Positions 5,526-6,184 of a stretch of 6,184 nucleotides of DNA are shown piece after piece (the first letter of the stretch is position 1; every line of letters starts with the position of its first letter). The position numbers and the translations under genes are program-made. Origin of the DNA: a virus (lineage: Duplodnaviria > Heunggongvirae > Uroviricota > Caudoviricetes). A model generated the notes under the pieces. It was not told the DNA's origin. It saw nothing but the letters and a program-made list of their open reading frames with translations, and ran no database searches. The stretch lies in IMG/VR virus record IMGVR_UViG_2713896791_000023. One strand, 5' to 3'.

Positions 5526-5712
5526 GAGCGTTTCTACGAACTAACAGAATCTTTGCTTTACGGTTTTTCATCGTTTTGCTCTCCTGCATCTCTTTGCTGC
5601 TCGTCGTGCCGCTGCAATACCGGTATGGCGGCGCTTTGGTGTCGGGATGATGTTCTTTGCAATTAGCGCAGAAGCCCAAAAACGAGTCGGATACGGTAAC
5701 AAGCCGATACAT
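5526..5712 (-). CDS. N-terminal part of a hypothetical ORF running into gap 2 (MYRLVTVSDSFLGFCANCKEHHPDTKAPPYRYCSG...MKNRKAKILLVRRNA...). A 51-aa ORF in another frame (5568..5723) is the alternative model.
   Basis: ATG at 5712 lies 8 nt after the upstream stop and the frame is open into the N-run, with CxxC and HH motifs. The nearest strong RBS (AGGAGG, plus 5730-5735) is spaced better for the ATG at 5723 in the other frame. Confidence 0.3.
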
Positions 5713-5722
5713 GCCACACGCA

Positions 5723-6184
5723 TTACTCACCTCCTTTGATGCGAATGCCAGCGGCGCGCTCGGCTTCACTTTGTTCCCAAAACCACTTGTGAAGCGCCAT
5801 AAGCTTTTCGTCAATCGGTGCATATTTGCGATTAAAGTAGGCCTGAGCATCTTTCTCAGATTCGTCCGGTAATTCGCCAGGGCCAAACAGTGTGTTATAA
5901 ATCCATGCTAGTCCGCTCTTAGCGTCGCCAGTTGCCTGCCATTCGATAATGGCAGCCTGCATGACCAGAATGTTTTTCCCGATTAATAGGTCCAGTTCTT
6001 TGTACCGGTTGCGGATGTATGCATTCTCGCTTTGTAATTTTGCGTTGCGCTTTTCTGAGGCTTCAAGTAACGCCTGCTTATCGCGTAGAGCTTCTTCCAG
6101 TTCAGCAACATGGCATTCACTATCAATAAGGTTGTTCTCTGCTGCTTCAAGCTCAACACGCAGCTTCCCAACCGTAAGCGCAAT
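5723..6184 (-). CDS. Partial CDS (5' end beyond the window): coiled-coil N-terminal region plus a C-terminal domain, possibly ead/Ea22-like.
   Basis: The minus-strand frame is open from the window edge to TAA at 5725..5723. The first ~75 codons are heptad-like (LRVELEAAENNLIDSECHVAELEEALRDKQALLEASEKRNAKLQSENAYIRNRYKELD). The ORF-track 79-aa ORF is only its C-terminal part. The family name is a guess from memory. Confidence 0.65.
   Translation of the reverse strand: MALTVGKLRVELEAAENNLIDSECHVAELEEALRDKQALLEASEKRNAKLQSENAYIRNRYKELDLLIGKNILVMQAAIIEWQATGDAKSGLAWIYNTLFGPGELPDESEKDAQAYFNRKYAPIDEKLMALHKWFWEQSEAERAAGIRIKGGE

Follow-up and report, generated by a model that had tools for sequence, protein, structure and literature searches.

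Two gene models compete for one stretch of DNA downstream of an Ea22-like gene in a Shiga-toxin prophage. One is a 51-aa ORF in a first frame (frame a); the other is a longer ORF in a second frame (frame b), which is open from an ATG at 5712 through the same sequence. Which of the two frames encodes protein here? Comparison of homologous loci favours frame a, and we assign a probability of roughly 85% to a three-gene coupled chain, composed of the Ea22-like gene, the small ORF and a 62-aa gene, in which frame b would be non-coding over 5712–5572.

The locus and its two reading frames

The window, by which we mean the whole stretch of 6,184 nucleotides that was analysed, covers the left arm of a Shiga-toxin prophage of the 933W/Stx2-86 type that has wrbA as its insertion site, with all phage genes on the minus strand. 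Positions 5526..6184 match Stx2-converting phage 86 at 100% identity and both 933W and VT2-Sakai at 99.8%, and they make up the exo-xis part of the early-left operon, on the minus strand. NC_008464 (reverse complement, locus L001) served as the unmasked reference; a window coordinate equals 7685 minus the L001 coordinate, a conversion valid for 5526..6184. The N runs at 4796-4845 and 5476-5525 are both fixed 50-N masks. The second of these (gap 2, 5476..5525) stands for 37 real bases, L001 2160-2196, so ORFs read across it in window coordinates are frame-shifted and have the wrong length. The features discussed below are as follows.

1..579, minus strand: wrbA, adjoining the phage integrase
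5370..5571, minus strand: 62-aa 'MKNRKAK' gene, read in frame b from ATG 5571..5569, with the 50-N mask 5476..5525 inside it
5568..5723, minus strand: small ORF (frame a), 51 aa plus stop, ATG 5723..5721, TGA 5570..5568
5581..5585, minus strand: Shine-Dalgarno sequence (SD) of the 62-aa gene, AGGAG, nine nt before ATG 5571 and inside the Arg-rich tail codons of the small ORF
5654..5655, minus strand: deletion junction (21 nt lost in frame) between K23 and N24, by comparison with the common 58-aa form …IAK/PHVLMAD/NIIP…
5710..5712, minus strand: frame-b ATG of the rejected model (MYRLVTV…); AGGAGG ends 17 nt upstream, with no SD at a usable distance
5727..5737, minus strand: SD of the small ORF, AAAGGAGGTGA, with the AGGAGG core at 5735..5730, six nt before ATG 5723..5721
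5723..6184, minus strand: 3' part of the Ead/Ea22-like gene, running off the window end, stop TAA 5725..5723, last codons IKGGE and stop

Elsewhere in the window, the wrbA ORF runs on into phage-end sequence, and its first codons, MINHILRH…, replace the native N-terminus; prophage insertion thus leaves an open, altered wrbA ORF. The disrupted wrbA of Sakai is annotated as a pseudogene. A perfect tandem repeat at 3028-3081, six copies of the 9-nt unit GCTGCACTG, sits within a 129-aa ORF (2885..3274, minus strand), where it encodes a VQPVQPVQPVQPVQ repeat and is likely to be a length-variable region.

The sequence signals that a first-pass annotation had described (the 51-aa ORF, AGGAGG at six-nt spacing, TAATG and ATGA) were all located on the minus strand, and the other frame is indeed open from ATG 5712 into the N-gap, with CANC and HH motifs. 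That annotation did not state that ATG 5571 shares a frame with ATG 5712. The competing models therefore differ only over 5572..5722, and they are in part compatible: from ATG 5571 onward, and only there, frame b is a real gene. Recomputed third-position GC (GC3) was 43.1% for frame a and 66.0% for frame b, in agreement with the earlier values of about 43% and 67%, while int came to 45.8% and not the about 41% given before. The earlier judgement that codon bias does not discriminate between the frames holds; moreover, GC3 favours the wrong frame, as the higher value is found in the non-coding one. An open frame of 51 codons is not by itself beyond chance, and it is the comparative data that make it significant.

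The Ea22-like product is 100% identical to Stx2-86 gp47, an ead/Ea22-like family protein, and in relatives PF13935 genes lie directly upstream of the small ORF. The stop of the Ea22-like gene (5725..5723) overlaps the small-ORF ATG as TAATG, and the small-ORF stop (5570..5568) overlaps ATG 5571..5569 as ATGA. AGGAGGTGA, which contains the AGGAGG core, has its sole exact match within the window at this site. Translation of 5723..5568 gives the 51-aa protein MRVACIGLLPYPTRFWASALIAKNIIPTPKRRHTGIAAARRAAKRCRRAKR, whose predicted tryptic peptides include VACIGLLPYPTR, FWASALIAK, NIIPTPK and HTGIAAAR. Peptides of frame b include LVTVSDSFLGFCANCK, APPYR, EHHPDTK and YCSGTTSSK.

The arrangement suggests how the chain would be translated. 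The Ea22-like gene ends at TAA 5725..5723, and its last codons, AAA GGA GGT GAG (KGGE), double as a near-perfect SD. Ribosomes would then start at the overlapping ATG 5723, make a 51-aa protein with a putative hydrophobic/aromatic N-terminal helix and a polybasic C-terminal helix, and terminate at TGA 5570..5568. Since this stop overlaps ATG 5571, the start of the 62-aa gene with an SD of its own at a distance of nine nt, translation could be handed on once more. Stop-start overlaps combined with an SD within the upstream gene, both conserved in relatives, are consistent with translationally coupled pairs.

Frame a remains open in homologous loci

To avoid gene-caller bias, 80 IMG/VR loci were retrieved by the 62-aa protein alone. 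Frame a was intact in every one of the 72 loci that carry the region, and all 72 have the ATGA end as well as an upstream junction of either TAATG or TAGTG. The small ORF starts with ATG in 46 loci and with GTG in the other 26; the GTG starts arose by a change of TAATG to TAGTG, which retains both the upstream stop and a valid start. Conservation in 72/72 loci argues against the suggestion, made when the locus was first read, that the coupling signals are coincidental. In a further seven loci a D6-type deletion has removed the small ORF and left the 62-aa gene in place.

Frame b behaves differently. Upstream of ATG 5571 it contains a stop (…CPDG-stop-QHHP…) in 56/56 long-type (58-aa) loci, and among the 72 loci it is open only in the 16 of the deletion type. 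Its ATG is replaced by ATT (IFRL) in the L006, L032 and L036 variant groups. Dewey, typing phage 9, RCS47 and TL-2011b have 21 extra bases, with frame a open over 58-60 aa (…IAKPHVLMADNIIP…) and frame b stopped. Because the long form is found in all more diverged lineages in the homologue alignments, the 51-aa form is a derived 21-nt deletion, and frame b is open in the 933W-type variant because this deletion removed its stop. On the evidence of these alignments, the 109/155-aa ORF is best regarded as a spurious one created by the deletion. The check proposed beforehand, whether stops or shifts of frame in homologues interrupt one of the two frames and spare its rival, found frame b stopped and frame a open.

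Breaks in homology among relatives coincide with the proposed gene ends. The homology of BP-4795 and of Stx1a phages ends at the Ea22 stop, and that of PJ16 begins exactly at ATG 5571, after an unrelated gene, again with ATGA and with an equivalent SD. The 62-aa gene matches phrog_1380 over profile positions 1-62 of 62 (E=1.9e-40), so that the profile match runs from its first residue, and an SD of its own and a module boundary were both found at this start. PGAP WP_000797281.1 and Sakai ECs_1168 begin at the 5571 equivalent.

Two observations concern the 62-aa gene and its neighbour. L007-L009 and many of L048-L088 carry two tandem, diverged MKNRKAK paralogues ~170 nt after the small ORF, each with a stop-start overlap with the preceding gene; their cysteines are not conserved. 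Directly downstream of the 62-aa gene, at 5159-5440 (minus strand), lies a second start-site conflict, in which 933W L0068 is a 93-aa GTG-start model overlapping the 62-aa gene and PGAP has a 71-aa model with an ATG start (MAIAASYTMHLYCDC…).

Purifying selection acts on frame a

Selection was measured as dN/dS by the Nei-Gojobori method on diverged pairs. Frame a gave values of 0.15-0.37, and frames b and c gave about 0.9-2.2. Fisher tests of synonymous versus nonsynonymous change were significant for frame a (p 3e-7 to 8e-5) and not significant for frames b and c. Variable sites are distributed over the three frame-a codon positions as 26, 18 and 35, a distribution classical for coding in frame a and the opposite of what frame b would need. 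The L091 lineage shows weaker constraint, with a frame-a dN/dS of 0.5-0.8. The comparison of synonymous with nonsynonymous change, also proposed at the outset, accordingly detected constraint in frame a only, and taken with the intact frame in 72/72 loci it bears out the suggestion that a small hydrophobic-basic peptide is encoded here.

Indels among intact alleles (21 nt, 3 nt and 6-9 nt) are all multiples of three in frame a. Frameshift alleles were also recovered, comprising three independent a-to-c shifts (P0065, P0061, P0058) and one a-to-b shift (P0068). P0065 is common, being present in about 95 contigs, complete genomes among them, and in two mosaic contexts, behind two different upstream genes. 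The a-to-c shifts lie at different positions near the PKRRH codons (L095-L097, position about 1300; P0058, P0061, P0065), and each swaps the basic tail for an acidic one (…AAIPVLHRHDEQQRNAGEQNDEKP). We considered programmed frameshifting for these three alleles and rejected it, as the shift sites have no slippery heptamer and their positions differ; the shifts look like ordinary mutations for the same reasons. The absence of the small ORF from D6-type phages and from lambda indicates that it is dispensable.

Public annotations disagree at the locus

Annotation of this DNA differs between sources. RefSeq phage 86 (NC_008464) and AP004402 carry a 155-aa ORF in frame b, sharing 128 nt with the Ea22-like gene, and 933W lists no gene at the locus. 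PGAP genomes, including Sakai, have the 62-aa gene alone and leave 151 nt "intergenic", and the PHANOTATE record PV189400 has exactly the 51-aa and 62-aa ORF pair. The small ORF is accordingly missing from EHEC reference annotations. PHROGs divides the locus among three families, with the small ORF in 13831, the 62-aa gene in 1380 and the 155-aa ORF in 12350.

The RefSeq counterpart of phrog_12350, the hypothetical protein YP_794093.1 (Stx2-86 gp46, 155 aa), is the same DNA read in frame b and is matched by the window over its whole length. Only its last 62 residues constitute the conserved gene (phrog_1380), while the first 93 run out of frame across the Ea22-like gene and the small ORF. For the long ORF as a whole, we found neither conserved openness nor purifying selection nor a usable RBS. 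A zinc-ribbon or CxxC…CxxC protein was considered and rejected: CANC lies in the non-coding part of frame b, and the downstream CGFC is CC…CC in paralogues or is replaced by sequence with no Cys.

The small ORF belongs to a family of polybasic prophage proteins

The small ORF matches phrog_13831 with E=1.7e-27, residues 1-51 aligning with profile positions 1-58 of 58. Members of this PHROG are normally 57-60 aa long, and the window carries a 51-aa deletion variant. XYY30097.1 of phage vB_EcoP_phi296 is one of its GenBank members, labelled 'hypothetical protein', and PV189400 has the same sequence at the same position. A phmmer search yielded relatives in 69 clusters at 90% identity, a number that rose to 236 with a profile search; an exhaustive HMM search of 1.84 billion representatives returned just 15 at E ≤ 0.001. 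Members come from Escherichia, Salmonella, Enterobacter, Klebsiella, Citrobacter and Vitreoscilla; their settings are lambdoid exo-xis regions and Mu-like prophages. Among 5426 complete E. coli genomes, 550 (about 10%) contain the DNA region of the small ORF.

Family members are 52-64 aa long, with variable, moderately hydrophobic N-termini and a C-terminal TG(I/V)AAA(R/K)RAAKKRRR that is almost invariant through many synonymous codon differences. The Enterobacter, Klebsiella, Citrobacter, Salmonella and Vitreoscilla relatives retain both this motif and the stop-start overlaps with the next gene. Net charge is +14 for the 51-aa protein and ranges from +11 to +16 across members. The small protein thus belongs with polybasic prophage proteins of about 55 aa that share a conserved TGIAAARRAAKKRRR helix at the C-terminus. 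An AlphaFold2 model built on a 30-sequence alignment placed helices at 11-25 and 33-50, joined by a loop, at moderate confidence (pLDDT 68, pTM 0.26).

Two distant members have other neighbours. In a Vitreoscilla Mu-like prophage (L106/L107 3001-3168) the family gene stands directly after an Amidase_3 endolysin and is joined through ATGA to the gene for an 82-aa hydrophobic protein. The Enterobacter member (L105 74-259) precedes a DksA/TraR zinc-finger gene and encodes a signal-peptide-like N-terminus.

Searches of Pfam, NCBIfam, PADLOC and PDB sequences with the 51-aa and 58-aa proteins gave no family match, and the same searches with the 62-aa protein gave only a sub-threshold Pfam hit to zf-C2H2_jaz (16.4 vs 22.6 bits). 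For the Escherichia type, a small single-pass membrane protein, a type I toxin-like protein and a signal peptide were each rejected, as hydropathy is too low. A Kyte-Doolittle 19-residue mean of about 1.6 was taken as the least that a membrane-spanning segment needs; the window protein peaks at 1.24 and nine family members at 0.67-1.56, and the segment is broken by Pro, Thr and Arg. The N-terminus of Enterobacter/Klebsiella-type relatives is more signal-peptide-like. What the protein does can be proposed only tentatively; our best guess is a small accessory protein that might bind nucleic acid or another polyanion through its TGIAAARRAAKKRRR helix.

Among known systems, a partial parallel may be offered by arginine-rich-motif (ARM) peptides, such as the N-terminal RNA-binding helix of lambda and P22 N. 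The small protein would resemble these by analogy, as a small early phage protein with a short predicted helix rich in Arg, Lys and Ala (RRHTGIAAARRAAKRCRRAKR). In contrast to the N helix, the motif is C-terminal, and there is no Pfam match to N or another family, nor a match in NCBIfam or PDB.

Another setting is given by the small accessory genes of the lambdoid exo-xis (b-region) early-left operon, such as orf60a, orf63, orf61, ea22 and ea8.5 of lambda and Stx phages (PMC7093339). The small ORF shares with them the operon, the strand and a place directly after ea22, as well as stop-start overlaps and shuffled modules. It differs in being absent among the exo-xis genes named in that paper, and in having no counterpart in lambda.

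The C-terminal tail of Ea22 proteins overlaps the SD of the next gene

A '+GE' motif at the C-terminus of Ea22 proteins has been reported, its significance being given as unknown (PMC7093339). At the L001-L099 junctions, at least ten different upstream C-terminal domains converge on …(I/Q/R)(K/N)GGE-stop, with the SD and its distance to the start codon preserved. The sequence offers a simple explanation, in which '+GE' would be the translation of the next gene's SD, AAAGGAGGTGAG. Lambda, without the small ORF, retains a relic tail, …IRIKGE-stop. Phi24B was also checked, and its different module after ea22 made it uninformative.

Two further points were noted in lambda. Its gap between ea22 and ea8.5 is an unannotated 191 nt (29656-29846; L104 157-347) with no coding-strand ORF of at least 30 aa. 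Its Ea22 tail is identical to that in L044, a phage that has the small ORF.

Alternative explanations

Could the long frame-b ORF be the real gene, running for 109 aa from ATG 5712 or for 155 aa from ATG 5850, with the 51-aa ORF as its chance shadow? In 933W-type phages frame b runs for 155 codons without a stop and is annotated as such in NC_008464 and AP004402, its GC3 is the higher (66%), and it has CANC upstream and CGFC downstream. We nevertheless regard this model, which is the first-pass rival from ATG 5712 together with its longer version, as very improbable. The stop in all 56 long-type homologues and the loss of the ATG in some of them speak against it, as do frame-b dN/dS values that are about 1 or more. 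Neither start is well placed: AGGAGG lies 17 nt before ATG 5712, which is without a properly spaced SD, and a start at 5850 entails the 128-nt overlap with the Ea22-like gene. Paralogues of the 62-aa gene do not conserve the cysteines. In PGAP the long model has moreover been dropped (NP_309195.2 and WP_000797281.1 have 62 aa), and both PJ16 and D6 set the gene start at the 5571 equivalent. Production of both proteins, the 51-aa one and a 109-aa N-terminally extended downstream one, could apply to the 933W-type variant only and has, if anything, a still smaller chance of being right. The 16 deletion-type loci and the window do have both frames open, and occasional initiation at ATG 5712 is not forbidden by the sequence; yet this ATG has no SD and lies 11 nt inside an efficiently initiated ORF, and the extension has no history of selection.

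It is also conceivable, if unlikely, that 5572–5722 specifies no functional protein and acts either as a relay, passing ribosomes from the Ea22-like gene to the 62-aa gene and averting Rho polarity, or as a non-coding spacer. The several natural frameshift alleles, one of them common, fit such a role, as do the lack of the gene in D6-type phages and lambda and the lack of a PGAP call or domain match. The a-to-c alleles terminate just past the next start, so coupling would persist in them. A relay or spacer would not, however, be expected to show a dN/dS of 0.15-0.37 or in-frame indels among intact alleles, nor to keep a C-terminal motif at the amino-acid level through synonymous changes, out to Vitreoscilla. 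Furthermore, nothing relevant came from scanning the window against Rfam or from searching the region for promoters and terminators, and no Rfam family, promoter or terminator was assigned to the locus.

Discussion

The coupled chain with a coding frame a is the reading that we prefer. Conservation of the frame, purifying selection within it, conserved coupling signals and the boundaries of gene modules were each observed in homologous loci, and on this comparative evidence the small ORF is probably translated. Neither the peptide nor any coordinate close to the locus appears among the novel genes tabulated by the Sakai RIBOseq study; this is weak evidence against translation, since the tables derive from uninduced cultures and cover intergenic ORFs of an older annotation (PMC5597208). 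The small ORF is already known as a hypothetical protein in PHROGs and in some GenBank records, so what is offered is an annotation correction and no new kind of element.

The correction settles a three-way conflict between public annotations of a much-studied Shiga-toxin phage, and it makes two-thirds of the 155-aa ORF of phage 86 an artefact. It illustrates as well that, when a genuine gene loses a few codons in frame, a long shadow ORF can open up and be preferred by gene callers. Beyond this, the family may, with odds that we consider rather low, prove to be a functional, widespread and largely unannotated group of polybasic proteins whose C-terminal helix binds RNA, DNA or the ribosome and so influences early phage development or host physiology. 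If that were true, a real early gene would be missing from the reference annotations of 933W, EDL933 and Sakai.
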